A stretch of 32,175 bases of DNA from Chloroflexota bacterium (GTDB lineage Bacteria; Chloroflexota; Anaerolineae; JACRMK01). The stretch covers positions 1 through 32,175 of the forward strand of contig JACQEC010000097.1 of the NCBI GenBank assembly GCA_016200765.1, in the 5' to 3' direction. This document shows positions 3,082 through 22,232 of this stretch, piece after piece (position 1 is the first letter of the stretch; each line of letters begins with the position of its first letter). The notes beneath the pieces are model-generated. The model was not told where the DNA came from. It worked only from the letters and a program-made list of their open reading frames with translations, and searched no databases. A program made the translations under genes and the position numbers.

Positions 3082-5103
3082 TTATGCCATCCCCAGCGCC
3101 TTCAGCGCCGCCCCCAGCGGCTCCGAATAGAAGATCGGGTCCACTTTTTCCAGCAGGTCTCCCGGCACGTCCAGGAACTGCCGCTTGTTGCTCACGGGGA
3201 TGAGCACCTTTTTCGCTCCGTTATCAACCATCACTTGCAGCGGCTCGATTAGAGAGCGCAGTGGCACAATATTGCCCTGGATCGTCATGTCGCCAAGTAC
3301 GACCAGTCCGGCCAGCGTCGTCCGGTCGCGCAGTAGCGAATAGAGCGCCACGAAGAAGGCGACGCTCGCCTGCGAACCTTCTTTGGCCTGTGCGAGATCG
3401 ACGATCTGGACGTGAAAGTCTGCGCTGTCGAGCTGCCGCTCGATACCCAGCATCGCTTTATTCGCGCGTACGTAATCAAACGCCGTCATGAGCGAATCGC
3501 GCATTAACCGGTCTGGGCTGCCGCTGATGCGCAGCTTGCCGGAGCCCATCATCATGGTGACTTCGATCCGGTGCAGCGCCACCACCTGCTCATTCGTCAA
3601 TGCCGCGCCATACACGCTCCCTGCCGGCAGCGGGTCCGACGCAATCAGATCGGCGCGTCCCTGTTCCGGCACGCCAACATAGCGTTCCTGCATCGTCTCG
3701 TTGTCAATGTACGAAAAAGACGTCTGGTAATACTCGAATGCCCCCATTTTCTTGAGCTGCTCTTTGACGCGCCGCCGCCCTTCCAGCGCAATTTCCACAT
3801 ACTCGCGCAACTCTTCTTTTGGAGGATTTCCTGATGGGTGCAATAGCTTAATCAGTCCAGAGACTGTCCGGCGGACGGCCTTCGCATCCCGCGTATTCAG
3901 ATCAGTACCTAGCGCGAAGTATTGATCGAGTTGGTTAGCGTAGTTGTGACGACGCAGCTCTCGGAATGCTTCAGCCAAATAGTCCACCACGAAGCCATAG
4001 TGCTCTGTCAAGAACTCGTTGCGCATCTTGGGTATTTCCCAGCCGGGGATATAAAAATGTAGGCGGTCAATCAGCGCCATATCTTGCATGTCTTCTGGCA
4101 GAGGTTGAAACAAGTGACTGGTACGCACCAACATATCCACCGGCTGATTGATGTTGCCAGCAAAGACTACCGAGGCTTCAGCGACCAACTCCTCGCGCCC
4201 ACGACTGAAGCTGCCGCTCTCCATGTAATCCTTCAATATCTGGATGGCCGTCTTGTCGTCGAATTTGATGCCGGCCACCTCGTCAAACGCGACCACATCC
4301 CAGCGCCCGACGAGGCCGACTTGGCGCGTGCTCATGTTGTAGAACAGGTTGGCAACGGTCGTCTTGCCGCCGGATATCAGGATGGCATACGGCGAGAGGT
4401 CGCGGTAGACGTACGACTTCCCGGTGCCGCGCGGCCCGAGCTCAATCAGGTTGTAGTTACGTTGGGTCATCGGGATCAAGCGCACCAGCATCAGCAATTT
4501 GATGCGCCGGCTGAACTGTGATGGCTCTAGCCCGATGCTACGGATGAGCAGATCAATCCATTCATCGGTCGTGAAAGATGTCCGGCGCGCACAATAGTCG
4601 TCCAGACTAAACGTCGCTAGCTGAATCGGTTTGAGCGCGGTGATATAGAAGGGGCGCGCCTTGTCGTTCTCGTCGCCCTCGCCGCGGAACTCGATTTCCA
4701 CCTGGGACCAGACACCACCCTCCAGCAGCCGCTCGTATTGGCGCACGAACTGATCGGGGATGTGAACAAAGCGGTGGCTGAAATTGACCAACTCGGCCCA
4801 ATACTTGGTGCCATCGAGGCGCACCAGCACCTTGTCGATGAACGTCTGCTTACCCCGCTCCTTCGTGCGCGACTGGCCCTTCATCGCCTCGTCAGGCCGG
4901 ATGATGCTGGAGGCCAATGTGCTGTTGACAAGCCGCAGCCCAGCCTCGATCGCGATGGGATCATCTGTCGCGCAATACTTGCCCAGCAGATACTCGAGCA
5001 CATAGCCCGGCACGTTGGCGCCGACCTTGACCTCGCGCACGAGGTCTTTGCGCACCACCCGCCCTGCAAAGATGTCAACGACTTTGCGATCCAACTCTGG
5101 CAT
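3082..5103 (-). CDS. brxL: BREX Lon-like AAA+ protein BrxL
   Basis: N-terminal GRVVRKDL...NVPGYVLEYLLGKYC, Walker A ELGPRGTGKS, VAFDEVAG, KDYMESGSFSRG and a C-terminal Lon-protease-like fold. Directly downstream of pglZ. Confidence 0.95.
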   Translation of the reverse strand: MPELDRKVVDIFAGRVVRKDLVREVKVGANVPGYVLEYLLGKYCATDDPIAIEAGLRLVNSTLASSIIRPDEAMKGQSRTKERGKQTFIDKVLVRLDGTKYWAELVNFSHRFVHIPDQFVRQYERLLEGGVWSQVEIEFRGEGDENDKARPFYITALKPIQLATFSLDDYCARRTSFTTDEWIDLLIRSIGLEPSQFSRRIKLLMLVRLIPMTQRNYNLIELGPRGTGKSYVYRDLSPYAILISGGKTTVANLFYNMSTRQVGLVGRWDVVAFDEVAGIKFDDKTAIQILKDYMESGSFSRGREELVAEASVVFAGNINQPVDMLVRTSHLFQPLPEDMQDMALIDRLHFYIPGWEIPKMRNEFLTEHYGFVVDYLAEAFRELRRHNYANQLDQYFALGTDLNTRDAKAVRRTVSGLIKLLHPSGNPPKEELREYVEIALEGRRRVKEQLKKMGAFEYYQTSFSYIDNETMQERYVGVPEQGRADLIASDPLPAGSVYGAALTNEQVVALHRIEVTMMMGSGKLRISGSPDRLMRDSLMTAFDYVRANKAMLGIERQLDSADFHVQIVDLAQAKEGSQASVAFFVALYSLLRDRTTLAGLVVLGDMTIQGNIVPLRSLIEPLQVMVDNGAKKVLIPVSNKRQFLDVPGDLLEKVDPIFYSEPLGAALKALGMA

Positions 5104-5111
5104 GAGAACTC

Positions 5112-7706
5112 CTACAAGGCAATTTCAATCGGCAGGTCGGCCCTACTGGCCAATTTTGTGCCTGTGTCCGAGTCGAGCAGGTAGAGTGCAACTTGGGCTA
5201 CTTGGGGAACCTCTGTCACCTGCAAAGTAACCGAATTGGGCATGATCCGCTGCGGGTCGGCGGGATCCGTGGCCAGGGCCACATCGCCGGTCGCTGCCTG
5301 GAAGCCGTATGCCGCCGCCACTGGCACCGAAATGACCTGGTCGCCGGCGCGCAACTCCAGGCGCACGCGCGGCGCGGACGCGAGCATTACCTGCGCTTCT
5401 GCCTGGATCGTGACCGAGAAAAAGCGCGTTGTAATTTTGGCCGCGCCGGGCACGAGTGTCCAGCTGAAGGCAGGCGCACCCGTCACGGGCGCCAGCTCGC
5501 CCGCCGCGACCGTCAGCACCGGGATGACGATTTCCTGCAGCGACAGCCCGCCGTGCGAATAGACCATCGAGCCGCCCTGCACCTTGAACCAGGCGAGACC
5601 AAACGGTGTGACCAGCTCGAGATCGCCGCTCAAGCCAAACGCGGCGACCGGCGTTCGCAGGCATCCGGGTATGGCCGAGCCACCGTTGCCCACCCACACG
5701 CGTCGATGCAGGTCGGCCGTATCGCCGCCAGGCGCGTCAATGGTCTCCGCCTCGATCAGCTTTGGCCCGAACAGGTAGCCGTGGTCAGCCGTGATGATAG
5801 CCTTTCGCACACCAACGCCAAAGAGCGAGCGCAGCCCGCGCCGCAACTGGTTGAACACATCGTCTTGCATCTGGCGCGCCAGGTTCGGGTTGTTCTCCCA
5901 GAGGCCGTCGATCTCGTCGCTGGCCGTGACGACGATCAGTCGGGCGCCAGCCAGCTTGCTCCGCAGTTGCCTGCTATTGAGTGGCGCCAGCTGGCTTAAC
6001 TCAACGACGGCCACCGTCTCCCCGACCTGCTTCTGCAGATGCTTCAGCCGCTCCTGGCTATTCTTGACGATCGTGCCGCCAATCTCGATGCCCAATTTGC
6101 CACCGCCGAGCGCAACGAGTCCGAGCCCGCGTTCGGCGCCCGGCATCAGCGCCGCCATGCCGACCGGGGTAATCGTTGGCGGGGTGGCAAGCGCCGGCGA
6201 CAGGTCAGCTTTGAAATCCACCGCCAGCAGCTCTGCGAACTCGCGCGCCATCTCGAAGCGCAGGGCATCGACCAGGATGTAGGCCATCTTGTCCTCGGCC
6301 AGCGCGGTCGCAACGAACGAACGGAAGATGTCTGTCTGGTGCGTCCCGCCGGGCAGGTCGAAGTGGACGGCCTCGTAACCGTGAATGAAGCGGTTGGCCA
6401 GCTCATCGATCACCTCGCGATAACGCTGCTGCGCCCGGGTCACGAGTTGCACCAGCCTATCGTGGATGCCGTCTTCCGGGTCAAAGCGATGGTAGTCCCG
6501 CTCCAGATGGCGATAGGCGCGATCCAACTCGCACCACGGGGCGTCTCCGCTGGTATAACGCACGTACAGTGCGTCAGCCGATAGCGTCTGCGCTTTCAGC
6601 TCGCGCGCGATCCGGTTCGCCGTTTCCAGCACAAGCCCGGCTTGAGCGATGACTTGCCAGCGCAGCTTGCTTTCAGGTTTCTGCGTGCTCCAGAAACCAT
6701 CCGCGCGCCCGCGTGCCAATTCCATCAGCAGGCCATTTCCCTTACTGCCCACTTCCGCTTCAACCAGCGCTTGCAGCGCCGTCTCTGTGCGGTAGAACGT
6801 CTCGCTCTCCTTGAGCACGTGCGGCTCCCAGGCCAAGTCGCCCAGGCCCAGCTCGGCTTCCACCCGTTGGGCCGCCTGCGCGTAACTTGCGCCCAGATCG
6901 CGGCGCTGCCGCCAGGCACGCACGACTTGAACTGCCGTCTCGCGCGCCGCCTTGCCATGGGCGTGCGCGACCGTGCTTAGCCGCTCGGGCGCAGGACCGT
7001 TCAGCAATGCGAGGAACTCTGTCGTCAGCAGGTAGCGCGCCAGCAACGTCCGGATGGCGGAGAGGACGGACTGGATCGGAATCGCAATTTCGAATGCGTT
7101 CGCGAACAGCTCCCTCAACGGCTTGATCGCGCTGCGCCCTCGGATCGTCTCGTCCAACTCCGGCTCGCTCAAGAATCGGAGCGAGATCTCCTGGACGTTG
7201 CCGGAGTTGAAGATAATGGCCAGCACACCGGCATCGCCCGCGTTCTGCTCGGCGCGTGTATCCAGGTCCGCCAGGCTCAAACTGCCGGCCTCGACCTCTG
7301 CGACAATCTTGGCGACGACCGCGGCAGGCAGCAGCGGTTCCAATGCCACGCGCGCTACAGCCGCCAGCCGCGTATTGCACTCCGGCGGCTGCTGGCCGGG
7401 CTGCATCACGACGCCGACCAAGGCGAACTCAACCAGCGCGTGGTGCGTGTCAGCCTGCGCTAGCGGCACGTAGATCACCATGCGGGGCGACTCTCCGGAT
7501 TGCGCGTTCCAGAGGGTCTCCATATCGCGCCGGAGCGCCACGAACCCGCGCTCTTTCCGGTAGACGAAGAGCGGCGCACCGCTCAACGATGCCATGCTTG
7601 AGACCGCAGCGAGGTAGGCTCCTTCCGGGTCGAACCAGACGACGGTGCGATGGGCTTCGACCTGGGTGCGGATCAGTTCAAAGAGTTTGTCGGTGACCAA
7701 CCCCAT
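5112..7706 (-). CDS. pglZ: BREX PglZ-domain phosphodiesterase/alkaline-phosphatase-family protein
   Basis: Motifs ILVDALRFEMA, PTITPVGMAALMPG, ITADHGY and HGGLSLQEIVIP, plus N-terminal VWFDP. Start set at ATG 7706 (MGLVTDK), 8 bp after the upstream stop. Confidence 0.93.
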   Translation of the reverse strand: MGLVTDKLFELIRTQVEAHRTVVWFDPEGAYLAAVSSMASLSGAPLFVYRKERGFVALRRDMETLWNAQSGESPRMVIYVPLAQADTHHALVEFALVGVVMQPGQQPPECNTRLAAVARVALEPLLPAAVVAKIVAEVEAGSLSLADLDTRAEQNAGDAGVLAIIFNSGNVQEISLRFLSEPELDETIRGRSAIKPLRELFANAFEIAIPIQSVLSAIRTLLARYLLTTEFLALLNGPAPERLSTVAHAHGKAARETAVQVVRAWRQRRDLGASYAQAAQRVEAELGLGDLAWEPHVLKESETFYRTETALQALVEAEVGSKGNGLLMELARGRADGFWSTQKPESKLRWQVIAQAGLVLETANRIARELKAQTLSADALYVRYTSGDAPWCELDRAYRHLERDYHRFDPEDGIHDRLVQLVTRAQQRYREVIDELANRFIHGYEAVHFDLPGGTHQTDIFRSFVATALAEDKMAYILVDALRFEMAREFAELLAVDFKADLSPALATPPTITPVGMAALMPGAERGLGLVALGGGKLGIEIGGTIVKNSQERLKHLQKQVGETVAVVELSQLAPLNSRQLRSKLAGARLIVVTASDEIDGLWENNPNLARQMQDDVFNQLRRGLRSLFGVGVRKAIITADHGYLFGPKLIEAETIDAPGGDTADLHRRVWVGNGGSAIPGCLRTPVAAFGLSGDLELVTPFGLAWFKVQGGSMVYSHGGLSLQEIVIPVLTVAAGELAPVTGAPAFSWTLVPGAAKITTRFFSVTIQAEAQVMLASAPRVRLELRAGDQVISVPVAAAYGFQAATGDVALATDPADPQRIMPNSVTLQVTEVPQVAQVALYLLDSDTGTKLASRADLPIEIAL

Positions 7707-7714
7707 AGGCGCCC

Positions 7715-9757
7715 CTATCCTTTGACCAGCCCTTTGGCGCGCAGTTGCTGGCTGATTGAGCTCCACGCATACTTGCCATCCAGCAGGTCGGCCCAGGCCT
7801 TCTGCGCTTCCTTCCAGGGGACCAGCTCATACAACGGCGCAATGTTTAGCAGTACGCCATCGTTCAGGTCCGGGTGGAGGTCCAGCCGCGCAATGCGGTC
7901 AATTGTTTTCTGGAATGTCTTGATTTCATCAACCAGATCAGCCTGCGCGGCCAGCGCGCGCTCCTGTGCCCTGCGCGGCGCGCCTTTCAGGTCTGCTGCC
8001 ACAGACTGCAGGTCGGAAAGCCGCTGGGCTTCAAGATTGAGCTTGGCATCCACATAATCGCGGCCCACGCGGTAGAGTGTGTCTGGGCCCAAGCGATGAT
8101 AGTAGAGCCAGATGCCATAGTTGCGGTTGCGGGATTGCAGCAGCCAGTAGATCGGCGCTTTGCGCCGGCTCTTTGAGTAGCGCTTGATGTGGAAGTCGAA
8201 GAAGTGACGGGGCTGGCGGAAGTATTCGCGCAGGGAGCCGACGCCCAGAATCTCGCAGGCTTCCTGTTCGATTGCGTCCGCCCGCTCGCGCCACAAAAGG
8301 CCGAGGACGGCCCGCACTTGCTTGACGATGTCGTCGGGGTGACGCTCATCGTCGGGCAGGATGCCGTCCCAAGCTATTTTGAGCGGATAGGCCGCATCCG
8401 GAATCGTGGCGGGCGAGTCGTCGAGCGCGGCCGCATCCGGCAGGGTGATCACATTCGGGCGCGCTTGCAACCACGCCTCACTGACGATCGTTCCCGGCTG
8501 GGCTGGCAAGCCATCTGGCCCGACGAGCATGCCTGGCGAGCAACAAGGGAGCGGCTCGAACGGACCCTGCAATTCCGGTAACAGCGACTGGTCAAGCGCG
8601 AAGCGCACGTCCCAGCGACCAAAGGCACAGCCGAGGCACCACATGAGGAAACCTTCTATCGTCGCCTGTGGGTCGTCTGAAAGTAATTCGTCGGGTTCCG
8701 TTTCGGTGTCCACCTCTTGCGCATCTTCTTCGATGCCTGTGTTTTCGACCAACCCGTTGACGTCGCTAGACTCGACGAAATCCTCTGGCGCTAGGCCATA
8801 CAATTGGGCGACTCGTTGATCTATTCGGTTCTGCACTTCCATCAGTTGTGATTGGGTTATTTCATATGCCTCTGCGCTTAGTCTGGCGCCGGATATTGGC
8901 GACTCCCGCCCCAATCGGGCGAGAACAGTCAGCGAAAACGCGTGAGTTGTCTCGTCACTTTTATCCAAGCTGCGAGTCAATTCGTAAGCGCGAAACGACT
9001 GGGTTGACAAGTCTGTAGGGTCGCCCAATGGGGGGATAGGAGTTCGTTGCAGTACACCAACTTCATATGAACCAAATGCCATCTGCAATGTAAGCAGGTG
9101 ATGCCAAATAGCTGAATTCATCAATCCAAGTAGCGCAAGCAGATCTTCGTTGTTGTCATCACTTGTAAAGACTGAAGGCCCTTTGTGACTAAAAATGGAT
9201 TTCCCAGGTAGAGCTCTTGCGCTGAATCCCTTTTGTGTCCTAAGCGGATATGTCAAGCCTTGTCGAAAATAGTACTCACTGTTTGCAATACGCCTAGACC
9301 AATGAGTAGTTCCAGGATCAAACGGATTCTGGGTCACCCATTCTTTCAATTCTTTGCCATTATTGTGCCAGTTGATAACCAACTGGATATCACTGTAGAA
9401 TTTCGAATACTCGCCTCCCTTACTGAGCGGGATCCACGAGCTTCCTAAATCGGTAGTTTTAGCTTCCCACCACAATCTGACGAATCGAAAATCATCACTC
9501 GTGGATAGACCGATTTTTACCACACGATCTTTACTTTCAAAGCGAGGATATCGCCCAAATATTGAAAGCACCCTTTTGCTAGCCCAATATGCGATTGGTG
9601 AGCCCGGGATTTGCCTGAAAGCGTCCGCTTCTATGGCAAACCTGTTAGCAACCGACCGATTAGCATTCAGCGCCTGCACCTGCGCGGCTAAGCGCTCGCC
9701 CTTGTCCTCAATCTCGGTTTTCAACAGGCGGAAGAATACGGTCGGTTCAGCGCTCAT
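7715..9757 (-). CDS. PglX-like methyltransferase #2, C-terminal half (target-recognition domain plus C-terminal region) as a separate ORF
   Basis: FRQIPGSPIAYW, GLSTSDDFRFVRLWWE, WIPLSKGGEYSKFY, YYFRQGLTY, HIKRYSKSRRKAPIYW and PDLNDGVLLNIAPL are PglX C-terminal features. No SAM-binding or NPP motif. Has its own ATG at 9757. Confidence 0.85.
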   Translation of the reverse strand: MSAEPTVFFRLLKTEIEDKGERLAAQVQALNANRSVANRFAIEADAFRQIPGSPIAYWASKRVLSIFGRYPRFESKDRVVKIGLSTSDDFRFVRLWWEAKTTDLGSSWIPLSKGGEYSKFYSDIQLVINWHNNGKELKEWVTQNPFDPGTTHWSRRIANSEYYFRQGLTYPLRTQKGFSARALPGKSIFSHKGPSVFTSDDNNEDLLALLGLMNSAIWHHLLTLQMAFGSYEVGVLQRTPIPPLGDPTDLSTQSFRAYELTRSLDKSDETTHAFSLTVLARLGRESPISGARLSAEAYEITQSQLMEVQNRIDQRVAQLYGLAPEDFVESSDVNGLVENTGIEEDAQEVDTETEPDELLSDDPQATIEGFLMWCLGCAFGRWDVRFALDQSLLPELQGPFEPLPCCSPGMLVGPDGLPAQPGTIVSEAWLQARPNVITLPDAAALDDSPATIPDAAYPLKIAWDGILPDDERHPDDIVKQVRAVLGLLWRERADAIEQEACEILGVGSLREYFRQPRHFFDFHIKRYSKSRRKAPIYWLLQSRNRNYGIWLYYHRLGPDTLYRVGRDYVDAKLNLEAQRLSDLQSVAADLKGAPRRAQERALAAQADLVDEIKTFQKTIDRIARLDLHPDLNDGVLLNIAPLYELVPWKEAQKAWADLLDGKYAWSSISQQLRAKGLVKG

Positions 9758-9797
9758 CAATTATCCATTTCAACAGGCGGTCAAGCACGTCGCACCA

Positions 9798-11777: not shown

Positions 11778-12597
11778 GGGCCGCGTTCGCCTCGACTTGT
11801 GCGGCGTATGCTTTGATGCGTTCGACAACCAATTCGTCGAGCGCCAGGCAAATATGGCGTATCGTGTCAACCGACTGCTTGGCCGCCGCAAACGTAATCG
11901 CTTGCGGCTCGCCGTCCGGGTTGTCCTGCGGCCGGTCGGCTCGGTGCACGATGTCGTTGCGGCGTGTCACCGTCCGATCGAGCGTGTCCATGATCTCTCT
12001 TCTCTCGGCGTTCATCCCCAGGTGGGTAACGATTTGCTCCCACGGCTTCTCGAGCCCATGCAGCCGCCCCACTACCGCTACGCCTTTGCGCGTGCTTAGA
12101 TACTTGAAATTCGTCAGGCTCAAGATCCGGGTCGAAATATAGTCGGCGGCGCTGGCGTCTTTGATCAGCCGCAGCGTCTCATCCAGTGTGAAGGTCAGAT
12201 CCTTGAAATAGTCAACCACCGTGGGGTCGTTGGTCGGTATGAAATCGCGTCCGACCGCGCGGATGATGATCGGCAGGTTCGCCCGCAGCAGGGCCGGCAG
12301 GAACGTGTCCAGCGCCGTACACGCCATCACGATCGACTGCCGCAGCAAGTGCGCCAGCGTGGCGCGCCGCAGCGTCGAGCGCGCCATCTGCGCGCGCTCG
12401 CGCACCAGTCCCAGAAACAGCTCGTTGGTCACGACCATCAGGTCTTCTTCGCGCGTGGCGTGCACCAGCAGACGCAGGGCGCCGACCATCTCGCCTTCGG
12501 TCAAAATCTGATCGTCCGCGTCCAGCAAGCGGTAAATCTGCAAGAGCAGTTCGGCAGGCCGAATATTGTCTTCGAAGATTTGGCGCGGGTTAGACAT
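11770..12597 (-). CDS. HEPN-domain protein (putative RNase toxin; RiboL-PSP/Cthe_2314-like)
   Basis: Helical-looking 275-aa protein with LLRQSIVMACTALDTF and the RxxxxH motif RRNDIVH. Tightly coupled between brxC (4-bp gap) and pglX#2 (8-bp overlap). Confidence 0.75.
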   Translation of the reverse strand: MSNPRQIFEDNIRPAELLLQIYRLLDADDQILTEGEMVGALRLLVHATREEDLMVVTNELFLGLVRERAQMARSTLRRATLAHLLRQSIVMACTALDTFLPALLRANLPIIIRAVGRDFIPTNDPTVVDYFKDLTFTLDETLRLIKDASAADYISTRILSLTNFKYLSTRKGVAVVGRLHGLEKPWEQIVTHLGMNAERREIMDTLDRTVTRRNDIVHRADRPQDNPDGEPQAITFAAAKQSVDTIRHICLALDELVVERIKAYAAQVEANAAHG

Positions 12598-12601
12598 AGG
12601 G

Positions 12602-15600
12602 CTACTCCAGGACGATCTTGGCGCCTGATTCCAACAACTTGAGCAGGTGATCGCGCAAGCGGTTTAGCAGCTCCTCAACCTCCTGCGGCGTGCTAAGCGC
12701 CTGGTATGAACTCACGACTTCGGCCATGCGCACGCGCTTGATTTTCTGCTCCGGCTGCAAGAGCTCTTGCATGGCGTGGATAACCCGTTCCCGTAGTGCT
12801 GGCATAGCGTCGAGATCCGACTCCATCTCGGGCAGGGTCGCGCGGCAGTGACCGCAGGCCAGCGCGCCAGCCGGTAGCTCTAGTTGATCACAGGCGCGTG
12901 CTTGCAAGGGCGCGAGCAGAGGGTCTTGCATCGTCTCTGGAACCGACGCCCAGTCGGGCAGGCCTTTGACGAACTCGATGGCCCGAGTGTACGCTTCGGC
13001 GCGTGTCTGGTGACCAGCGCGATAGAGCGCTGTGTACGCGGCTTCGACGTCGCCTGCGATCGCATCGATCTGCGCCGCTTCGCGGTAGAGCGCTAGCGAC
13101 TGCAAGGTCTCGTCAAGGCTCTTCATCTGCGCTTGCAGCGTAGCATCTGCGGCCCGCTCGGCCAACACGGGCCAAAGCTGGTTGAGCGCGGTGCGCGCGC
13201 GCTGCAAGCGCCGCAGCCCGGCCGGATCGGTCGCCTTGCGAATTTCCTGCGTCTGTTGGCGCAACTGCTTAAAGGTTTCGCCCTCGCCAGCCAGAATGTT
13301 GACGACGTCATCTGATGGGCTTTGGATAATCGTGTTGAGCTGCGAGCGATACTCGGCCAGAAGATCAGCGCCCGGCAGGTCATTCGCCGCCGCTTTGGCG
13401 ATAACCTCCAGCAGGGCTTCGCGCTCGGCGGAGGCCAGCTTCTGGAACCCCTGCGCGATCGCGTTCTCGTCAACATCCACCTCTTCGCCGGTCAGCGCTT
13501 CGTAGCGCTTGGCCGCGCCGACGAGCGTCTGCAGGTCGGGGGCCTTGCGCGGAGCAAAGGATGCCGCGCGAAAGGCATTGGCGCCGGTGAAGACCGGCCG
13601 AACTTGAGGGTCCAGATGATGACGGAAGCGCCGGCCCTGGTAGGTGACTTCGATCGTGCCTTTGCGCAGTAGGCTGGCGAGCACGATCCAGACCGTCTCT
13701 GGCTCCCAGCCGTACGGTATGGCGCGGAAGTGGTCTTCGAGCATGCGCCCGGTCACCTTGTTGCCGTACGAGTGCTCGCGTTGCACATAGGCGACGATCT
13801 CTTTTGCGATCGGCGCGTTATCGTTGATGATGAATTTGCCGCGGTCCTGAATGACCAAACCCAGGCCCTCGTCGCCAGCATAGAAGACTTTGGCGAGGCC
13901 GTTCAGGTTGGCCGCCTTGAGAATCTCTTCGGCCTCATCGCCCTTGATTGGACGCGCGCCCAATTCAAGTTGTGGGTAGAGCTGGGGCATGGCAAAATCA
14001 AACAGGGCATGGAAAATCTCCGACACCATCTTGCCAAGTTGAGCGCCCTCTCGGGGCGCACCGCCCAAAAAGCCGGTGCCCCGCGCGAGCTGATCTAACA
14101 GCAGGTTTTTCAGCCGCTCTTCGTGCCGGAGCACGGCCTGCTTCTCCGCCGCCAGACTGGCGGCCTCCTCGTCCGAGTGCAGCTTGCCCTGCGCGCGCAT
14201 CTGGTCGTATTTGGCCGCCATCTGTTTGGAGCGATAAACTTCTGCTAGCAGTTCGTCAATATCGTCTGTCAGGGCAAAGACCCAAAATAGGCGCGCCGGC
14301 GCTTGCCGGCTCTCATTCTGTGTCGCTTGGCACTCGGCGGCAAAGCCAGCGGGGCTATCGCTTAGCTTCAGCTCGAGCGGAATCTGCGCTTTGTTCGAGG
14401 TAATGTTGCGGCCTTGCCAAATGACGTTCAGAGCAAACGTGCGTCGCTTGTAGAGGTGACGGCTCAACGCAGGCTCTTGGAAGATACCCGCCAGCGCCCC
14501 TTCCATGAGATCGTTGCGCTCTCTTAACGAGGGGCTAAGGCTATTGCGCTCGGTCGTCCAGGTCTTCTCCTGCGCCGTCAGCAGTTTCCAGCCGTCCTCC
14601 GTCTGCCGGATGAACTGCCGCTTTTCGAGTTGTTGGATGGCTTGCTCAACCTCGGCCAGGGGTGATTTGGCATCCACGGCGTCGTAGAGCAGGACCGCAA
14701 TGTTGCGCTCGCTGCGCGGCAGGCCGCGCGTGTACTCCATCAGGCTGATGGCTTTGGCCGTGCGCACGACCCACGGTTCGCCCGAGAATATCTCCTGGAT
14801 CTCGTTCAGGTCGCGCTGGCGCTCGGAGGGTAGATTGGTATAGAGCAGGTCGTAAATGCGATCGAGGGTGACGAGCGTCCCGATGGGCGCTTCGGCAAGC
14901 CTGGTTTGTTTACTGACCAGCATTTCGTAGGCCTGCTTGATGATGGTGCGACTGCTGCCGCCGAAATGGCGGGGCGCGCCCGGCTGGAGGCGCAAGCCCG
15001 AGACAATATCAATCGAGAGTTCGATGAAGTGCGGCAGATAGGGATAGAACTGGACGAATTCGTCCGCGTTGAGATCGAAGCGAACCTTGTCCGAGCGTTC
15101 GGCCTGGATGTGGGTGCGGAGCTGGGCCCCCGACGTTCGGTAGAGTTCACGCAGCAGCGCTTCGGCCTCGGGCTTCTTGGGGAGCACGCGCTTGGTCGCG
15201 ACCTCACGAATATCACTGGGCACCATGTCAATATGGTGACGGAAACGGTCTTGCAGTCGCGCGAGCTCTACGCGCTTATCGCGGATGGCGGCGACGACCT
15301 CGTCGAGTTTTTCCTGGGACGTGACGACAATCCAGACCGGCGCCACCGCCCGGCGCGCTTCGACGCGGTTCTTGCCCTCCTTGCCGAACTGCTCGACGAT
15401 GGCGCGCAGATTTTCGATTTTTTCGGCGCTGCGCGCGACATATTGGCCGACCTCGTCAATCACGAACATCATGGTGCGGCCGGGATAGCGGCGCGCCGCC
15501 AGCTCAAACGTCCGCTGTACCAGATAGCGGACGTTGATATCGGCGGGGTTGGTAATCGTCTGCGCCCACGACTCGGGCCGCGGGTACGTCTTGGGGTCAA

Positions 15601-16333
15601 TCTCATGCAAGGTGGCGCTGGCGCGCTGGATCTTCTGCGCGCCTTTGCGGACGCGCTGCCAGGTGCGATACGCATCGGGCGGCACTTCCTTCAGCGTGAC
15701 AGGCACCCCGGCGTCGCTTTCGCCGTCGCCCGAGACCTGGCCGCCGAAGAGCCTGGCGCACGCCTGCACGAAGGCGCCCAGCCGTCCCTCGGATTCCAAC
15801 TCGATCTCGAGCGCAGCTACGTCGTAGTCCTGTGCGTAGTCCAACTCGCGCAGGAGCACGCTGTACATGATCTCGGCCAGCGATTCGTTGGCGCGGCGCA
15901 CGGCCCGGTCAACCTGCACGTCGAACATGATGACCTGCGCGGGAATGAGTTTGTTGATGAAATCCAGATGGTTGGCGATGCCCTCGACCAGCGGGTCATG
16001 CGGCGACTGCCGGCGAAGTTGCTCGATGAACAGCGCGGCCGCCGGTTTGGCGCGCAGTGTCGGGTTGGCGACGATATATCCGAAGTTCTTGGCAAACGAC
16101 GACTTGCCGGAGCCGAAGAAGCCCGAGACCCAGACGCCCACCGCCTCGGTCGGCTCCCCTTGGCTGTCGGCGATTGCCGTGAGGAGTTCGAGGTACTGCT
16201 CTTTGATATTCTTCGTCGCGACGTACTCGACGATTTCGCCGTAGACCGTCTGCTCGTCCCGCTGGTCGAGCTTGATGACTTCCTCGATCGGTTGCGAGAG
16301 GTCACGGGCTATCAGGTCGCCAATCGTTTTCAT
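12602..16333 (-). CDS. brxC: BREX P-loop ATPase BrxC
   Basis: RDLSQPIEEVIK start, Walker A GVWVSGFFGSGKS, Walker B FVIDEVGQY, VTSQE, LQDRF, FYPYLP and PYGW. Start set at ATG 16333 (MKTIGDL) with GGAG SD 5 nt upstream. Confidence 0.95.
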   Translation of the reverse strand: MKTIGDLIARDLSQPIEEVIKLDQRDEQTVYGEIVEYVATKNIKEQYLELLTAIADSQGEPTEAVGVWVSGFFGSGKSSFAKNFGYIVANPTLRAKPAAALFIEQLRRQSPHDPLVEGIANHLDFINKLIPAQVIMFDVQVDRAVRRANESLAEIMYSVLLRELDYAQDYDVAALEIELESEGRLGAFVQACARLFGGQVSGDGESDAGVPVTLKEVPPDAYRTWQRVRKGAQKIQRASATLHEIDPKTYPRPESWAQTITNPADINVRYLVQRTFELAARRYPGRTMMFVIDEVGQYVARSAEKIENLRAIVEQFGKEGKNRVEARRAVAPVWIVVTSQEKLDEVVAAIRDKRVELARLQDRFRHHIDMVPSDIREVATKRVLPKKPEAEALLRELYRTSGAQLRTHIQAERSDKVRFDLNADEFVQFYPYLPHFIELSIDIVSGLRLQPGAPRHFGGSSRTIIKQAYEMLVSKQTRLAEAPIGTLVTLDRIYDLLYTNLPSERQRDLNEIQEIFSGEPWVVRTAKAISLMEYTRGLPRSERNIAVLLYDAVDAKSPLAEVEQAIQQLEKRQFIRQTEDGWKLLTAQEKTWTTERNSLSPSLRERNDLMEGALAGIFQEPALSRHLYKRRTFALNVIWQGRNITSNKAQIPLELKLSDSPAGFAAECQATQNESRQAPARLFWVFALTDDIDELLAEVYRSKQMAAKYDQMRAQGKLHSDEEAASLAAEKQAVLRHEERLKNLLLDQLARGTGFLGGAPREGAQLGKMVSEIFHALFDFAMPQLYPQLELGARPIKGDEAEEILKAANLNGLAKVFYAGDEGLGLVIQDRGKFIINDNAPIAKEIVAYVQREHSYGNKVTGRMLEDHFRAIPYGWEPETVWIVLASLLRKGTIEVTYQGRRFRHHLDPQVRPVFTGANAFRAASFAPRKAPDLQTLVGAAKRYEALTGEEVDVDENAIAQGFQKLASAEREALLEVIAKAAANDLPGADLLAEYRSQLNTIIQSPSDDVVNILAGEGETFKQLRQQTQEIRKATDPAGLRRLQRARTALNQLWPVLAERAADATLQAQMKSLDETLQSLALYREAAQIDAIAGDVEAAYTALYRAGHQTRAEAYTRAIEFVKGLPDWASVPETMQDPLLAPLQARACDQLELPAGALACGHCRATLPEMESDLDAMPALRERVIHAMQELLQPEQKIKRVRMAEVVSSYQALSTPQEVEELLNRLRDHLLKLLESGAKIVLE

Positions 16334-16350
16334 AGGGGCTCCGGGCATCA

Positions 16351-19300
16351 TCAGTCTCCCTGATAAACGTCTTCGAGGCCGTGTGCGATGGCAAAGGATT
16401 TGTTCGTCCGACACGCCTTGCGCACCCGGTCGGGCCAATAGTGCATGGCGATGTGACTCCAGTCCAACTCGCCGTTCTTCAGCTTCTCCCAGCACTTCTT
16501 CGGCTCGCTCCCCCACAGCGGGATGACCGTCTGCAGGGGCGCCAGGCGCACGATCACGCCGTCGTCAATCCAGTTTGGCGCGGGCTCGTAGCCGCCGCTG
16601 GTGATGGCTTCGAGCGCCTTGGCGAACTCGGCCAGTTCGGCGGCCAACTCCCGTAAAGCGCCCATCTGCCGTTCGATGTCCCGGCGTTGTTTGCCCGCTG
16701 CGGCGCGCGCGACCTCGGCATCGGCCAGGGCCAATTCGACCGCGCGGCGCTTGGTGTCGAGGTACGGCTCGCGTTGCAGGGCGTAGAACGTGTCTTTGGT
16801 GATGCGTTCGTGGAAGAGGACGAAGCCATAGCGGCGACCGTTGCTCTGGATGGGCCAATAGACCGGGCGCTTGCGGTACCACGGGATATGCCAGCGCGTG
16901 AAGAAGTCTCGTGCAAGAAAATGGCGCAGGTCGCCGTTTGCGCCCAGGCGGATGACTTCCTGTGCCGCATCCGCGCCGAGCATCAGATCGAGCGCCTTGC
17001 CCGCCAGCGTCGTCAGGTCGCGCGGGTGGTGCTCATCAAGCACGGTGATGCCATCCGGCACCGCCAGTTGCTGCAGGGCCTTTTCCACGTTTGCCGCGAA
17101 CAGGTGCCGGCCGTCCTGTGCGTCTACATAGGCGAACTGATCTTTCGACCCGACCAATTCATCGAACTCGCCCTCCGCAGGCATGGGCAGCGAGCCGATG
17201 GCAAAGTCTTCGCGGCGGTAGATGGCCGAGCCGAGATCGCCCGCCACCCCCGGCCGGAAGCGCCCGAGCACCACGCCGACGGCGTACGAGATCCAGCGCA
17301 CGGCAAGGTCTTCGCGGGTCAACGACTCCGCTATATCATCGTCATTGCCGCCGGCTTCATCCATATCTGCCAAAGTCTCGTCCGCGGTCGCGTTTGCGGC
17401 ACCATTTAATTCCGCTTCAATCGCTATGCGCTCTTGATTAGCAATCTTGTAAAGCTGATAAACATCCTCGTCGATCTGCGCCTCGATATCCTTGGATTGC
17501 AGTCGCATGGCCTGTACTCTCTCAAGACCGGTTTGCCAGCTTAGCGGGACAACGAAGTCATAAGTCAATTCCGATGTCGTAGACGTTACCTTTGCCAAGG
17601 AGGTTGCCAGGCCGACCAATCCACTCAATCGTCTGTCGGAGACGGCAGGTATGGGAACCCTAGCGATATCACCAACCTGAAAGTTTACGGTCGGGTTTAT
17701 CAACTTGAGAGCGTACGCAGCGAATGAGGAATTCATAACTCCCAACACCAACGCCAAGTCCCGTGGAAACAGAGTTGAACCCGCAACATCAAAAATGAAG
17801 CCACCCGGCGAAATGCGGGAAGTAGAAGTCCCGGACGTAAGGTAGGAATATGTCACACCTTCACGGAAGTAAAAGTCGACCGATTTGATGATTCGTGACC
17901 AACCAGAGTTACCGTAGAGAGGGGCGGCCCATGCCTTGAGTTCACGTCCGTCCCGCCGATAATTGATCACATAATCTTGGTTCCCAAACCATCTCTTAAA
18001 CGCTCCACCTTTCATATACGGGAACCAGCGCATGCCGCGGTTACTAGCCTCGCTGGTTGTCTTACATCCAAACGCAATCATCTTGCGGCCAACTTCCCAC
18101 CAAAAACGGAGAAACCTGAAATTGTCAGCGGTCGCCAATCCTTGGCGAGGCGGAGCAACGGTCGCCAGTCCCGGCAGCTCCTTGAAGAGCGCGCGAATGG
18201 AATCGCTCACCCAATACACCCATGGACTACCCGGAATGGCATCAAAGGCCGACTGCGCGACACGGTATATGAGGCGATGAGTTGCGCCTGCCTGCAGCGC
18301 CGCCACGGCCTGCTCGAACACAGTACGCTTGGCGTCCGAATCGGGCTCGTGCACGAGACGAAAGTAGGTGCCGATGCTGGCTTGGCGGCGCGACGTGTCA
18401 GGCTCGCGGCGCATGGCGAAGATCGTCGTGTTGACCTTCTCGCCGGATATCTCTGCAAACGCGCGCGGACCCACATGAGCCATAGACTCAATGGCGAACT
18501 CTTGCAACAGCCCCTTGCGCAAGCCTTCATACGACGAGATAAACATGAACGACTGTTGCGTGATCATCCCGACCCGCCCACGCTCGCCGGCAAACTCACC
18601 GCAGCGTTGGATGAACGCCGCATACAAGTCACCCTTTGCTTCGGGGTAGGCATCCGCCACGAAGTCCGCCAGCGTCTCGTTCATGTTCCGGCGGCTCATG
18701 TAGGGTGGATTGGCTACCACGCAGTCGTAGCGGCGCAGCATCAGGTTCAGCACACGCAACCCTTTCGCGGCCTCGCGCACAAAATAGCGCTCGTCGCTCC
18801 CCTGCACAGCGTGCGACCGCGCGAATGCGTCCAGCGCCTGCACAAGCTGTGCCGCCAGCAGGTCCCAGTACCCCGCCTGCGCCGCCTCGCGCTCAAATAG
18901 CGCCGCGGCTCTGCCAAACAGATCCAGCTGCCGCCCTTCCTGCTCGAAGCGCTTCTCCTCGTCGGCAATCAACGCGCCAATCTCCGATTCGAGCCGCAGT
19001 AGCGACCCCAGTTGCGCGCTATCCTCCAGCCGCGCCCATAGCGCCCGCAGCAGTCGTTCGTAGATCGGCCGGCTGAACTTCATCTCGCGAATGAACGCAT
19101 TGAGCCGTGTCCCGTTGAGCGTCAACACGTCTGCGCAAGCCAAGTTGTGATCGCTGATCTCGGCAGCCTTATTGAGGCTTTTCGCCTTCAGGTAGAGCGT
19201 AAGCGCCGATAGTTGAACCGCGCGCAGGTCAATGTCGATCCCGAACAGGTTGTGTTTGATGATTGCCGCGGGGATCTCCGCTTCAGAAAGAACCGAGGGT

Positions 19301-20328
19301 GCCGCCGGCCAGCCAATGTCGCCCGCATGCGCGAGCTCCTCGCGATACATCTCGGCGAACAGGTCGAACGCCACCAGTCCGAAGTGCATCGTCCCGCACG
19401 CGGGGTCCAACAGGGTGATTTCCTTTACAGCACGTAGCGGCTCACGGGGCATCTCACCGCCGGCTGGCACGAGGTACCGCAAGGCTGCGCCCAGGTGCGA
19501 GTCCGGGTGCATCTGCACCCACAGCCGTCCGAGCGTGTTCTCGACAATGAACCGCACGATCCAGCGTGGCGTAAACAATTGCGTCGCCGCCGGTATGTCC
19601 TCGCGTCGTATTTTCTTCTTCTGCCTGAAGAGCCGTTCGAAAACCTCTCGCTTTTCCTCTTCGCTAAAGAACTGGTACACCCACCCGATCGTCTCGTCCG
19701 CAGGCCACGCTGGAGCCAACCCGGCGGCATTTAGCAGTTCGAGCACGCCGCGCAGAGCAACCGGCCGCGGGAAGAGCCGCGAGGGCAAATCGTCGGGGTC
19801 GAACAGCACGTTCAGCTGTTGCGAAATCTGCCCGGCCTGCCAGAGCAGAAAGTGACGGTAGGCTGTGTCGGTCTGGCCGGCCTGCGCCAGCGCGTAGTCG
19901 GCGGCGTGCTCGGCGAGGTAGAACTTGAAGCCGTTGGAGTCGGCGCCGCGCCCGACTGCTTCGCGGACGAGATGGCGCGCCTCCATCATCTTGAAGGCGA
20001 CCAGCCGGTTCAAGTGCGTGAAAGCAATCTCCTTGACCAGCTTATCAACCGCCTCTCGCTTGTCAAGCCCGGCGATGACCTCGTCCGTCAGGAACTGCTT
20101 CAGGCGGTCGTAGGTCGCGCGTGTTTCCGGGTCCGCCAGCGCGGGCAGGTTGTTGGGCGGCTCGAGCGCGCCGTCCGGGTGCAGGCCGTACACGCCGACC
20201 AGCAGGTCGCGCGCCTCACACGCCAGCCGCTCGCGCGCGGCCAACGCAAAGTTGTGGATCGCGCCGCGCACCTCGTCGCCAAGGTATTGGTCCTGAAACA
20301 TGTGGGGGGCGATGGTCTGGTTCGTCAT
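16351..20328 (-). CDS. pglX: PglX-like adenine-specific DNA methyltransferase #1, full length
   Basis: PAATQLFTPRWIV, motif I LDPACGTMHFG, LFGIDID, motif IV VANPPY, DLYAAFI, TRD (QGLATADNFRFLRFWWE...WFPYMKGG...YFREGVTY), WYRKRPVYW and DDGVIVRLAPL. Confidence 0.92.
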   Translation of the reverse strand: MTNQTIAPHMFQDQYLGDEVRGAIHNFALAARERLACEARDLLVGVYGLHPDGALEPPNNLPALADPETRATYDRLKQFLTDEVIAGLDKREAVDKLVKEIAFTHLNRLVAFKMMEARHLVREAVGRGADSNGFKFYLAEHAADYALAQAGQTDTAYRHFLLWQAGQISQQLNVLFDPDDLPSRLFPRPVALRGVLELLNAAGLAPAWPADETIGWVYQFFSEEEKREVFERLFRQKKKIRREDIPAATQLFTPRWIVRFIVENTLGRLWVQMHPDSHLGAALRYLVPAGGEMPREPLRAVKEITLLDPACGTMHFGLVAFDLFAEMYREELAHAGDIGWPAAPSVLSEAEIPAAIIKHNLFGIDIDLRAVQLSALTLYLKAKSLNKAAEISDHNLACADVLTLNGTRLNAFIREMKFSRPIYERLLRALWARLEDSAQLGSLLRLESEIGALIADEEKRFEQEGRQLDLFGRAAALFEREAAQAGYWDLLAAQLVQALDAFARSHAVQGSDERYFVREAAKGLRVLNLMLRRYDCVVANPPYMSRRNMNETLADFVADAYPEAKGDLYAAFIQRCGEFAGERGRVGMITQQSFMFISSYEGLRKGLLQEFAIESMAHVGPRAFAEISGEKVNTTIFAMRREPDTSRRQASIGTYFRLVHEPDSDAKRTVFEQAVAALQAGATHRLIYRVAQSAFDAIPGSPWVYWVSDSIRALFKELPGLATVAPPRQGLATADNFRFLRFWWEVGRKMIAFGCKTTSEASNRGMRWFPYMKGGAFKRWFGNQDYVINYRRDGRELKAWAAPLYGNSGWSRIIKSVDFYFREGVTYSYLTSGTSTSRISPGGFIFDVAGSTLFPRDLALVLGVMNSSFAAYALKLINPTVNFQVGDIARVPIPAVSDRRLSGLVGLATSLAKVTSTTSELTYDFVVPLSWQTGLERVQAMRLQSKDIEAQIDEDVYQLYKIANQERIAIEAELNGAANATADETLADMDEAGGNDDDIAESLTREDLAVRWISYAVGVVLGRFRPGVAGDLGSAIYRREDFAIGSLPMPAEGEFDELVGSKDQFAYVDAQDGRHLFAANVEKALQQLAVPDGITVLDEHHPRDLTTLAGKALDLMLGADAAQEVIRLGANGDLRHFLARDFFTRWHIPWYRKRPVYWPIQSNGRRYGFVLFHERITKDTFYALQREPYLDTKRRAVELALADAEVARAAAGKQRRDIERQMGALRELAAELAEFAKALEAITSGGYEPAPNWIDDGVIVRLAPLQTVIPLWGSEPKKCWEKLKNGELDWSHIAMHYWPDRVRKACRTNKSFAIAHGLEDVYQGD

Positions 20329-20340
20329 CGGCTGGGCGGT

Positions 20341-20931
20341 TCAATCTACGTAGACTTTGGTGTGATAGCTGCCGCGCCCTTCGTTCTCGGCGATGCCCAT
20401 GAAGCGCAGGCTGGCGCCTTCGGTCGTGGCGGGCAGGAACAGCACACAGGGCACATGCGTGCGGCCTTTCATCTCGTCGAGCAGTTTCGAGACGCGGTAG
20501 ATATTCGGCGCCAGCGCGCCCGCGCGCCAGATAAACGCGAGGTCTTTATGCGGGTTCAGACTGCGCAACTGCTCCGCCAACAGCCCGGGCAGAGGGCGGA
20601 AATCGGGGTCCGACAGGTAGTCGTTGATCTGCTGTTGCGCCGCGTCGAAGCCTGCCTGCGCCTCCAGGCTGATGACGGCATCCAGCCCCTCGGATTCGTC
20701 GATCGCGCGCCACAACAGATCGGCCAGCGAGACGTAGACAATGCACCGGATGTGGTCGTTCTCCAGCCGCGTTTTGAGCAGGGCCACCTCGCCGCGCATC
20801 GCCCACTCTTCCGCCGGGGTGTAGCAGAAGGTGGCGAAGGGCAGGTCGTGGTACATGTAGTGCCCCAGCGGGTCGCGGCGCAAGTCGGCCTCAAGCCGCT
20901 TGATGCGTTCTTTTAACGAGGACATCGGCAT
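20341..20931 (-). CDS. brxB: BREX protein BrxB (DUF1788-like)
   Basis: DLPFATFCYTPAEEW, GALAPNIYRVSKLLD, VLFLPAT and LRFMG. Position immediately after brxA. Start may be 20925. Confidence 0.85.
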   Translation of the reverse strand: MPMSSLKERIKRLEADLRRDPLGHYMYHDLPFATFCYTPAEEWAMRGEVALLKTRLENDHIRCIVYVSLADLLWRAIDESEGLDAVISLEAQAGFDAAQQQINDYLSDPDFRPLPGLLAEQLRSLNPHKDLAFIWRAGALAPNIYRVSKLLDEMKGRTHVPCVLFLPATTEGASLRFMGIAENEGRGSYHTKVYVD

Positions 20932-21694
20932 ACTCCGCTAGGCTTGCGGCCGGAAACTCGAGCCGGATAACCGTACCGGCGGCCTGATACGACAGCAAAT
21001 CTGACTGATGCGCTTCGAGAAAAAACCGCTCGACCGCTTCGACGGGCAGAAAGAAGAGCTTCCATTCGTCGCTGTGCAGCACGCGCTCGCCTGACGACAG
21101 CTGGCGCCGTATGGCGAAGGCGATAAACGCAAAACTCTGGGTGGGCAAGTAGATCGGCGTGATTGATTTGTGCACGGCGCCCTGCAGGATGCCAAAATCG
21201 CGCAGGGTTGCCATAGCCCCTTGTGCAACGCGCCGCGCCGTTTCCTCGCTCCACGGCTCCGTTGTCTTACCTTCGGCGCTCCACTCATGAATGGCGCGCA
21301 CGACCTGCTCGACGCGCATCTCGGTGAAACCGGCCATACAGCGCGGGTAGAGCAAATCCGTGACGATCGCGCGCAGCAGGAGATCATTCTGCACAGAGTA
21401 GAAGTAGAGCAGAGGGTCCAGCCACGGTGGCGGCGCGTGCCCTTGCGACAGCGCAACCAGGGCCTGGCCGACATCCGGATCGTCGAAATAGCGTTGGCGG
21501 AAAATCCGCAGGATATCCCGCACGCGCGAGCGCGAAGTCTTGCCGAAGATATTGGACTGCTCCACGCGCTGTAGGTTGTCCGCAACGCTGGTAGACAGGT
21601 CCCATGCGGCCAGCAGCGTCTTCGTGTCGGCCAAGAGAGCGCTCGCCTTGATCAGCCGGCTGGTAAAACGAGGCTCGTCAGTTATAGATACCAT
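20891..21694 (-). CDS. brxA: BREX protein BrxA (DUF1819-like)
   Basis: FTSRLIKASALLAD, NIFGKTSRSR, WSEETARRVAQGAMATLRDFGIL and WKLFFL. Typical size and position. Confidence 0.88.
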   Translation of the reverse strand: MVSITDEPRFTSRLIKASALLADTKTLLAAWDLSTSVADNLQRVEQSNIFGKTSRSRVRDILRIFRQRYFDDPDVGQALVALSQGHAPPPWLDPLLYFYSVQNDLLLRAIVTDLLYPRCMAGFTEMRVEQVVRAIHEWSAEGKTTEPWSEETARRVAQGAMATLRDFGILQGAVHKSITPIYLPTQSFAFIAFAIRRQLSSGERVLHSDEWKLFFLPVEAVERFFLEAHQSDLLSYQAAGTVIRLEFPAASLAEYADVLVKRTHQAA

Positions 21695-21698
21695 CACA

Positions 21699-22232
21699 TC
21701 AGGATCGAATAAAAGGGAATACGGGCTCGACGGGCTTACCCGAGAGATAGGCCCACGCCAGCGCTTTTGCGATGTCTACGGCAGAGACGGGAAGACCTTG
21801 CGATGGCCATCGGATCGCCACCCTGCGGTTCGAGAGTTGTTCGATGGATGGCCGCCTGGCCGGTCTGTCACCCAGTAGCGATGACAAATGCAGTTGCAAC
21901 ACAGCCATAGACTCGATAGGCTGTGTCGGGATGGGGCAGTCCATTAAAGGCAGACGACTCAATTCGAGATTGGTCTCGCCGTCGGTATCGAGCCTGAACA
22001 GGTGTAAGGCCTCCGGATGGTCGGCAAAAGCCGCCTGATGCCTGGCTGCTGCTGTGGCCAGCCCCAGCTTGCGCGCGATCTCCTCCGGCGCCGATGGGAA
22101 GAGGCGCTCAAGGATGAAGGCTCCAGCGGCTGTCAGCGATTCGTCATCCCACCAGCCCAGACTATCCTTTTGAGCTGCGCGCGCGATCAGTAGCTGAAGT
22201 TGCAATATCAGTACAGCAGATGACCGGATCAT
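21699..22232 (-). CDS. brxE: BrxE-family protein
   Basis: LQLLIARAAQKDSLGWWDDESL...LERLFP...AAAARH...LHLFRL resembles BrxE. First gene of the operon, 177 aa, SD GAAGGTGA. Confidence 0.7.
   Translation of the reverse strand: MIRSSAVLILQLQLLIARAAQKDSLGWWDDESLTAAGAFILERLFPSAPEEIARKLGLATAAARHQAAFADHPEALHLFRLDTDGETNLELSRLPLMDCPIPTQPIESMAVLQLHLSSLLGDRPARRPSIEQLSNRRVAIRWPSQGLPVSAVDIAKALAWAYLSGKPVEPVFPFIRS

Follow-up and report, generated by a model that had tools for sequence, protein, structure and literature searches.

A type 1-like BREX operon of a Chloroflexota bacterium with PglX methyltransferases of two lineages on either side of brxC

A bacteriophage exclusion (BREX) operon in which two PglX methyltransferases of different lineages flank brxC was analyzed on contig JACQEC010000097.1 (assembly GCA_016200765.1) of a Chloroflexota bacterium. 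The whole stretch of DNA studied, 32,175 nt long, is referred to here as the window. Type 1 BREX methylates adenine at N6 within a non-palindromic 6-bp motif, and phage DNA that is unmethylated is excluded. In the usual picture of BREX, one methyltransferase serves one motif, and PglX sets what is protected and what is attacked. The operon described here is type 1-like and probably runs two modules for recognition and methylation, each specific to a motif of its own, on a single core.

Conservation of the PglX-brxC-PglX order

The operon lies on the minus strand (3082-22232) and consists of ten tightly packed genes, which Pfam, PADLOC, and NCBIfam scans identified in the order brxE-family-brxA-brxB-pglX1-brxC-HEPN-pglX2N-pglX2C-pglZ-brxL. 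PADLOC models were scanned against 12 proteins of the window, and in one additional scan Pfam was run against 12 open reading frames (ORFs). The content, order, and coordinates of the operon had been proposed in an earlier note made from the DNA alone, as had the tight coupling, and all of these were recovered. With the likeliest starts, the spacing between neighbors ranges from a small overlap to 37 nt. The full-length pglX1 (16351-20328; 1325 amino acids) is located between brxB and brxC. A second PglX, divided into pglX2N (9798-11777) and pglX2C (7715-9760), follows brxC and the HEPN gene. The pglX2N frame is open to 11891; the ATG at 11777 is the likely start, and alignments with orthologues begin at residue 39. 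For brxC (12602-16333; NF033441, 643 bits; PADLOC BrxC, 712 bits), the frame is open to 16516, with an ATG at 16333 that gives 1243 amino acids, the length of database protein P0001.

For the neighborhood survey, 80 loci from species-representative genomes and 80 from metagenomes were annotated with the window proteins. At 55% identity or more, BrxC relatives form at least 119 clusters besides that of the window; 21 relatives were aligned, and a BrxC tree of 56 rows was built. The window's BrxC fell into a clade of 13 rows with a FastTree support of 100. The same clade (12 rows) was obtained with IQ-TREE on 36 BrxC rows, with a support of 100 in the SH-like approximate likelihood ratio test (SH-aLRT); L001 was omitted from this run, being identical to L083. 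The closest named relatives of BrxC among the matches listed came from Chloroflexota/Anaerolineae assemblies.

Within this clade, a PglX gene was found upstream of brxC in all nine members readable on that side and downstream in 12 of 12. PglX stood on both sides in each of the eight members readable both ways, the window counted, and no clade member contained an internal stop. The unreadable members were cut by contig ends or showed cargo genes and then a contig end. For comparison across relatives, 96 loci with a BrxC at least 28% identical were considered, 51 of which were readable on both sides of brxC. Seven of the 51 carried PglX on both sides, and all seven belonged to the window's BrxC clade. 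Just one downstream PglX type was present in 39, four had an upstream PglX alone, and one (L093) had two PglX types, both downstream. From these neighborhoods and trees, the PglX-brxC-PglX order is a conserved trait of one BrxC clade that is rare outside it, and not a sporadic duplication.

A description of the pglX-brxC-pglX arrangement was not found in the literature searched, which yielded just a preprint on a Haloarcula system (discussed below) and structural work on single PglX proteins, and the supplementary neighborhood tables of PMC12839542, a 2026 survey of BREX diversity, may list such loci. Term look-ups in the main text of that survey likewise returned no mention of two methyltransferases.

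The four loci with an upstream PglX alone (L016, L092, L101, and L116) share the order brxB-pglX-brxC-(HEPN)-pglZ-brxL, in which the only pglX precedes brxC. In L016, a 70-amino-acid remnant of a PglX C-terminus remains 3' of brxC, which suggests that a downstream copy was lost.

The window is the whole contig of an 81%-complete, 3.15 Mb assembly that carries no other BREX-type PglX. Positions 3000-22400 are covered without difference by one 22,806-base contig of a single sequencing run. This run may be the source of the DNA, so the match argues against a scaffolding artifact and is not independent support. Given this single-run contig, a misassembly is unlikely. The stretch is present in four DNA runs of one groundwater study, whose contigs contain no variant forms of the locus; no RNA runs containing it are listed.

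Two PglX proteins of different lineages, one of them split

PglX1 matched NF033452 (BREX_1_MTaseX) with 813 bits (cut-off, 500) over profile positions 1-1209 of 1210 and aligned with residues 72-1182 of the solved PglX 8c45_A. Its match to a PADLOC model labeled Type IIG (593 bits) was weaker than its matches to PglX models. Of the second PglX, the N half covers positions 6-615 of NF033452 and carries the N-terminal and methyltransferase domains (the "upper jaw"), and the C half covers positions 636-1208 and carries the recognition and C-terminal domains (the "lower jaw"). PglX1 shares 34% identity with PglX2N and 29% with PglX2C. Alignment of PglX1 with PglX2N showed that motif I (DPACGTMHF and DPASGSGHF, respectively) is intact in both and that motif IV reads NPPY in PglX1 and NPPF in PglX2N. 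Catalytic motifs are retained in both proteins, and the two are diverged paralogues (29-34% identical), as had been claimed earlier.

The two forms of motif IV follow lineage. A tree built from 61 rows of PglX N-terminal halves placed PglX1-type sequences in a clade of 17 rows (support, 99) and PglX2-type sequences in a clade of 38 rows (support, 100). NPPY was found in 17 of 17 PglX1-type rows and NPPF in 37 of 38 PglX2-type rows, the exception being cut by a contig end. Since NPPF is typical of enzymes that work alone elsewhere, it is a trait of the lineage and not a sign of decay. PglX1 of the window clustered with other upstream genes of its BrxC clade (5 rows; support, 100), and PglX2N with other downstream genes of that clade (9 rows; support, 100). 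The upstream X1 genes form one monophyletic group and the downstream X2N genes another, and both branch in an order broadly similar to that of BrxC.

Both window groups are nested among PglX proteins of ordinary loci with no other methyltransferase; where a single downstream PglX was present, it belonged to the X2 type in 29 loci and to the X1 type in 10. Each lineage thus supplies the only PglX of many brxA-brxB-brxC-pglX-pglZ-brxL loci, which indicates that each can serve a BREX core alone. A tandem pglX duplication was ruled out, because the two genes sit in different deep clades. Instead, the pair is a joining of two old lineages, both of which have since diverged along with BrxC. Identity among pglX1 orthologues (49-65%) is close to that among the BrxC proteins (48-62%), so the two have diverged roughly in step.

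Both lineages also meet in L093. There, brxC is followed by a fused PglX2-type gene, two ORFs without a Pfam match, and then a PglX1-type gene (L093:5748-15768). L093 is a second, independent pairing of the two lineages.

At the split of PglX2, the N half ends in a stop codon, and the C half follows after 37 nt in a different frame. PADLOC includes half-length PglX models, and both halves matched such models end to end: PglX2N matched PDLC02526 over positions 1-637 of 640 (639 bits), and PglX2C matched PDLC02532. In the alignment with the solved Escherichia coli BrxX and Salmonella PglX, residues 34-40 of PglX2C correspond to residues 638-642. According to the E. coli BrxX structure paper, residues 638-675 form a flexible hinge that joins an upper lobe, made of the N-terminal and methyltransferase domains, to a lower lobe with the recognition and C-terminal domains. 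By this alignment, PglX2 is divided at that hinge, with the methyltransferase lobe on one side and the recognition lobe on the other. Among PglX2-type rows from the loci, 15 were split, 19 fused, and 3 undecidable, with the window as a further split case. In the window's X2N group, all eight readable members, the window counted, were split.

In several loci, cargo genes separate the PglX halves. A Schlafen/AlbA_2 protein was found between them in L002, AbiEi/AbiEii together with a SIR2 protein in L023, GmrSD in L105, and an OLD-like ATPase in L113; L040 holds DuOB, DUF488, AAA_21/DUF4276, and Shedu at this position. The halves are intact on both sides of these insertions, which marks a real two-gene arrangement.

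These observations bear on the possibility that only one PglX is functional, with the split pglX2 decaying or with pglX1 a passenger cargo between brxB and brxC. PMC9716671 read "two truncated pglX genes" as a gene interruption, related loci take up cargo at exactly these junctions, and the downstream PglX has been lost in L016, L092, and L116. However, in each clade member that could be read, both PglX2 halves are undamaged ORFs whose motifs are conserved, and the split falls at a domain hinge, is kept throughout the window's group, and tolerates cargo between the halves. For pglX1, the passenger idea is opposed by its divergence at roughly the pace of BrxC. We therefore regard a single functional module as very improbable.

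Gene junctions were also occupied by cargo in the BREX loci L002, L003, L004, L023, L040, L063, L082, and L083. The junctions used in these loci are brxB/pglX1, pglX1/brxC, HEPN/pglX2N, pglX2C/pglZ, and the gap that separates the two parts of PglX. Among the inserted genes are those for Fic, NERD, SIR2, Shedu, AbiEi/AbiEii, AAA_21 with DUF4276, TPR proteins, an Hsp70-like protein, and a DEAD helicase that carries an MZB domain.

Recognition domains and proposed use of the two PglX modules

The recognition domain is the fastest-changing part of both PglX proteins and coincides with segments of low G+C content (GC). In pglX1, the segment at 17500-18099 (minus strand; recognition domain, approximately amino acids 743-943) has a GC of 0.51-0.52, compared with 0.59-0.66 around it. 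In pglX2C, the segment at 8800-9699 (minus strand; approximately amino acids 20-320) has a GC of 0.43-0.51. PglX1 orthologues are least conserved over amino acids 746-845 (4-48% identity). For PglX2C orthologues, window-mean identity is lowest (24-29%) over amino acids 251-375, beside and just past the low-GC segment. The recognition-bearing halves of PglX1 and PglX2 are 29% identical. Phase-variable shuffling between the two recognition domains was ruled out: the operon has no recombinase, and its repeats are just short ones of 18-30 nt with 69-92% identity.

The related loci L105 and L084 share 94% identity in BrxC, yet their downstream PglX C halves share 16-46% in the recognition part, against 72-100% in the tail. 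This contrast fits a frequent exchange of recognition modules. At L105:2234-16455 and L084:5102-7063, GmrSD cargo splits the PglX1-type gene, and an extra PglX1-type C half lies 3' of HEPN, where the window has pglX2. L105 thus shows one N half with one C half before brxC and one after HEPN; its contig ends there, and a second N half may follow. Its two C halves share 12-38% identity in the recognition part; near the tail end, identity reaches 96-100% over two 50-amino-acid windows and is 80% in the last. In L113:5388-13285, from brxC to pglZ, the order is a PglX C half, one N half, the OLD-like ATPase, and a second C half. The L113 C halves are 66% identical overall; identity is 80-92% in the tail, compared with 36-60% in the recognition part.

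A split PglX could therefore be viewed as a two-subunit enzyme in the manner of HsdM and HsdS of Type I systems, whose recognition half is exchangeable and whose targets are diversified by adding or swapping halves, a process of which the window would represent one stage. L113, with one N half and two C halves that have diverged in the recognition part, and L105, with C halves on both sides of brxC for a single N half, would fit this idea, and the C-terminal domain of the solved PglX is reported to resemble Type I specificity subunits. In PglX2, as in HsdM/HsdS, catalysis and recognition lie on separate polypeptides, and relatives with two recognition halves per catalytic half recall loci with several hsdS genes. 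Unlike Type I systems, the window has no HsdR, its domains are PglX-type, and neither inverted repeats nor a recombinase able to drive shuffling were found; the likeness is one of organization, not of membership. Moreover, only two such loci were seen among 160, one of them cut by the contig end as described, and the window, where a fused PglX1 accompanies a single N half and a single C half, does not demand exchange. Exchangeable halves are thus a tentative option.

A broader proposal, which we also put forward only tentatively, is that this lineage runs two or more specificities on one BrxABCZL core, by means of a hinge-split PglX with an exchangeable recognition half and a complete PglX before brxC, and that the junction between the halves is a landing site for defense genes. 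If this is true, BREX specificity would be modular as in Type I systems, and the clade would be a defined multispecificity BREX subtype.

In the reading that we prefer, BrxA, BrxB, BrxC, PglZ, and BrxL would form the core, with the BrxE-family and HEPN proteins as accessories. The first module would be PglX1, a single polypeptide of the NPPY lineage, and the second would be PglX2 of the NPPF lineage, whose two polypeptides presumably reassemble. Each module would mark its own non-palindromic motif in host DNA, and the common BrxB-BrxC-PglZ machinery would exclude incoming DNA in which either motif is unmethylated. This reading draws on the following facts: the two lineages serve alone elsewhere, a PglX before brxC is the sole PglX in four loci, and both genes are conserved and intact throughout the clade.

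A precedent is the type V BREX of Haloarcula hispanica, whose BrxX1 and BrxX2 are reported to methylate different motifs independently (bioRxiv 10.64898/2026.04.28.721311). As in the window, one BREX locus there holds two methyltransferase genes, each with its own recognition domain. The archaeal system differs in having two BrxC, BrxHII and not BrxL, the order X1-Z-X2, paralogues that are 53% identical, and N4-methylcytosine (m4C) as its product. The window has one BrxC, BrxL, and PglX genes that flank brxC, are 29-34% identical, and belong to two old lineages, with one of the two PglX split. Two methyltransferases per BREX locus are thus no longer unprecedented, and the pglX-brxC-pglX lineage with its split PglX2 is a variant of such loci. 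The earlier suggestion of a distinct BREX subtype with two methyltransferases is supported in part, by the conservation of the two-PglX order across the clade.

Several points weigh against two modules on one core. The difference in motifs, the assembly of PglX2N with PglX2C, and the sharing of the core are all inferred from sequence. Outside the clade one PglX is usual, and 43 of the 51 loci have PglX on one side of brxC only. The clade is known from metagenome-assembled DNA alone, with several members cut by contig ends. In Haloarcula, deletion of either brxX1 or brxX2 is reported to abolish defense (bioRxiv 10.64898/2026.04.28.721311), so the modules may not be independent in restriction.

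This last result counts for obligate cooperation, in which PglX1 and PglX2 would not be interchangeable sensors but would act in one BrxBCXZ-type complex and exclusion would need both, either because two neighboring sites are read or because the two strands of one asymmetric site are. The Haloarcula system loses protection with either gene although each has its own motif. A published model of type I BREX has the complex assess two neighboring sites, and BrxX reportedly prefers BrxC as its partner, which would suit pglX genes that flank brxC. X1-type and X2-type genes have also come together on at least two occasions, once in the clade and once, in another order, in L093. Each lineage nevertheless occurs alone in many loci, and L016, L092, and L116 keep only the upstream PglX beside the same core, L016 with its downstream remnant. 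Solved BrxX/PglX is reported to be monomeric, with two copies in the Ocr complex that do not touch, and no coupling is visible between the changes in the two recognition domains. Cooperation of this kind is therefore considered rather unlikely. The earlier idea of a PglX heterodimer, or of one enzyme for each strand, finds no support in the sequence, in lineages that work alone, or in the solved monomer; of this idea, cooperation in restriction is the part that the Haloarcula result leaves possible.

The significance of the two-module reading lies in the material that the lineage offers. A conserved lineage with two PglX, one of them cut at the hinge, is a natural test of whether one core serves two sensors and of whether defense needs both, and the cut is a natural split point for the engineering of specificity.

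Known BREX types, accessory genes, and surroundings

BrxA (brxA, 20891-21697; PF08849, 75.8 bits; PADLOC BrxA PDLC02454, 136 bits), BrxB (brxB, 20341-20931; PF08747, 49.5 bits; PADLOC BrxB, 77 bits), PglZ (pglZ, 5112-7706; PF08665, 54.9 bits; PADLOC PglZ, 338 bits), and BrxL (brxL, 3082-5103; TIGR02653, 979 bits), all encoded on the minus strand, complete the type 1 gene content together with BrxC and PglX. BrxL, a Lon-like protein that also matched PF13337, PF20442, and PF05362, is the product of the last BREX gene. The pglZ frame is open to 7766, and the ATG at 7706 is its likely start. BrxC, PglX1, and BrxL pass NCBIfam cut-offs, and PglZ was matched by Pfam and PADLOC alone. With type 1 BREX of E. 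coli HS and Salmonella, the window shares all six core families in the same relative order, and PglX1 aligns over nearly its full length with the solved PglX/BrxX of type 1.

The operon also departs from type 1. Canonical type 1 BREX is described in PMC12839542 as having a single pglX, located after brxC. In contrast, the window has an additional PglX between brxB and brxC, and the PglX at the canonical position is split, so that one PglX stands on each side of brxC. The operon further adds BrxE-family and HEPN genes, its PglZ falls below NCBIfam cut-offs, and its BrxC is just 21-26% identical to those of type 1 systems in Firmicutes and Bacteroidota. For PglZ, every NCBIfam model remained below cut-off, the best being the BREX-6 model (180 bits) ahead of BREX-1 type A (140 bits). 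By these scores, current equivalog models do not capture the PglZ of this lineage.

The first gene of the operon (21699-22232, minus strand; 177 amino acids) encodes a protein that exceeds the cut-off of the BrxE family (NCBIfam NF033447 BrxE_fam, 51.5 bits; cut-off, 40). It matched no Pfam or PADLOC model, and with the BREX-6 equivalog NF033448 it scored 27.8 bits, below the cut-off of 80. A BrxE-family gene upstream of brxA and a PglZ closest to the BREX-6 model recall type 6 BREX. However, type 6 has BrxE, BrxD, and BrxHI in place of BrxL, whereas the window has BrxL, and its matches to BREX-6 BrxE, PglX, and PglZ are all below cut-off. PADLOC gave no match to BrxD or BrxHI for any of the 12 proteins scanned, and no helicase was found among the 12 ORFs scanned with Pfam. 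Type 5, which has two BrxC and BrxHII, does not fit either: one BrxC is present, and the operon lacks a helicase.

The earlier note assigned brxE to type 6, and the survey speaks against taking BrxE together with BrxL as a mixture of type 1 and type 6. Among 76 loci with brxA, 60 had at least 450 nt upstream, and in 41 of these a same-strand ORF of at least 100 amino acids ended beside brxA. Fourteen of the 41 ORFs exceeded the BrxE-family cut-off, and 6 of those 14 loci also showed BrxL. BrxE-family genes are thus common in BrxL-type loci, and the window is not a type 1/type 6 hybrid.

The predicted structure of the BrxE-family protein has a mean predicted local distance difference test (pLDDT) score of 81. 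A Foldseek search of this model against the Protein Data Bank (PDB) gave nothing at an E value of 0.001 or below. In a wide structural search, the best match was the N-terminal region of Salmonella PglX (8c45_A, residues 79-391; Z, 5.1; root mean square deviation, 4.2; 146 aligned residues). This score lies in a range common for the tool, and the next row (Z, 3.5) was a Type I M protein. The candidate view of this protein as a free-standing PglX N-domain was not supported, as profile-profile comparison with PglX N-terminal regions gave a probability of 0.15%.

The HEPN gene, of the RiboL-PSP type, lies directly 3' of brxC (11770-12597, minus strand; PF18735, 31.5 bits; cut-off, 28.4). An orthologue directly follows brxC in 23 of 65 related loci. 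The motif RRNDIVHR (Rx4-6H type) is well kept, with R212 present in 24 of 24 orthologues and H218 in 23 of 24. HEPN and other nucleases are described in PMC12839542 as embedded auxiliary effectors. BrxE-family and HEPN proteins are thus regular accessories of BrxL-type loci and blur the boundary between types 1 and 6. This matches the reclassification in that 2026 survey, in which types 5 and 6 are treated as subtypes of type 1.

Downstream of brxL, the minus strand encodes a 227-amino-acid ORF without a family match (2293-2976) and a 706-amino-acid McrB-like AAA_5 protein (133-2253), which reaches 150 bits with NF008457, below cut-off, and whose N-terminal part matches the PADLOC candidate family PDC-S02. 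The region 133-2976 is possibly a type IV restriction module that rides with the BREX operon, in which case any McrC partner would lie past the contig end. In the related loci, no counterpart was found 3' of brxL.

On the other side of the operon, genes for a replication-relaxation protein, RadC, a pair of TrwB-like coupling proteins, and an anti-restriction-like protein of the ArdC-N type lie within 23805-31044, where the plus-strand ORF 26416-27606 had no Pfam match. With these RadC, TrwB, ArdC, and replication-relaxation genes upstream, the operon adjoins a mobile-element module.

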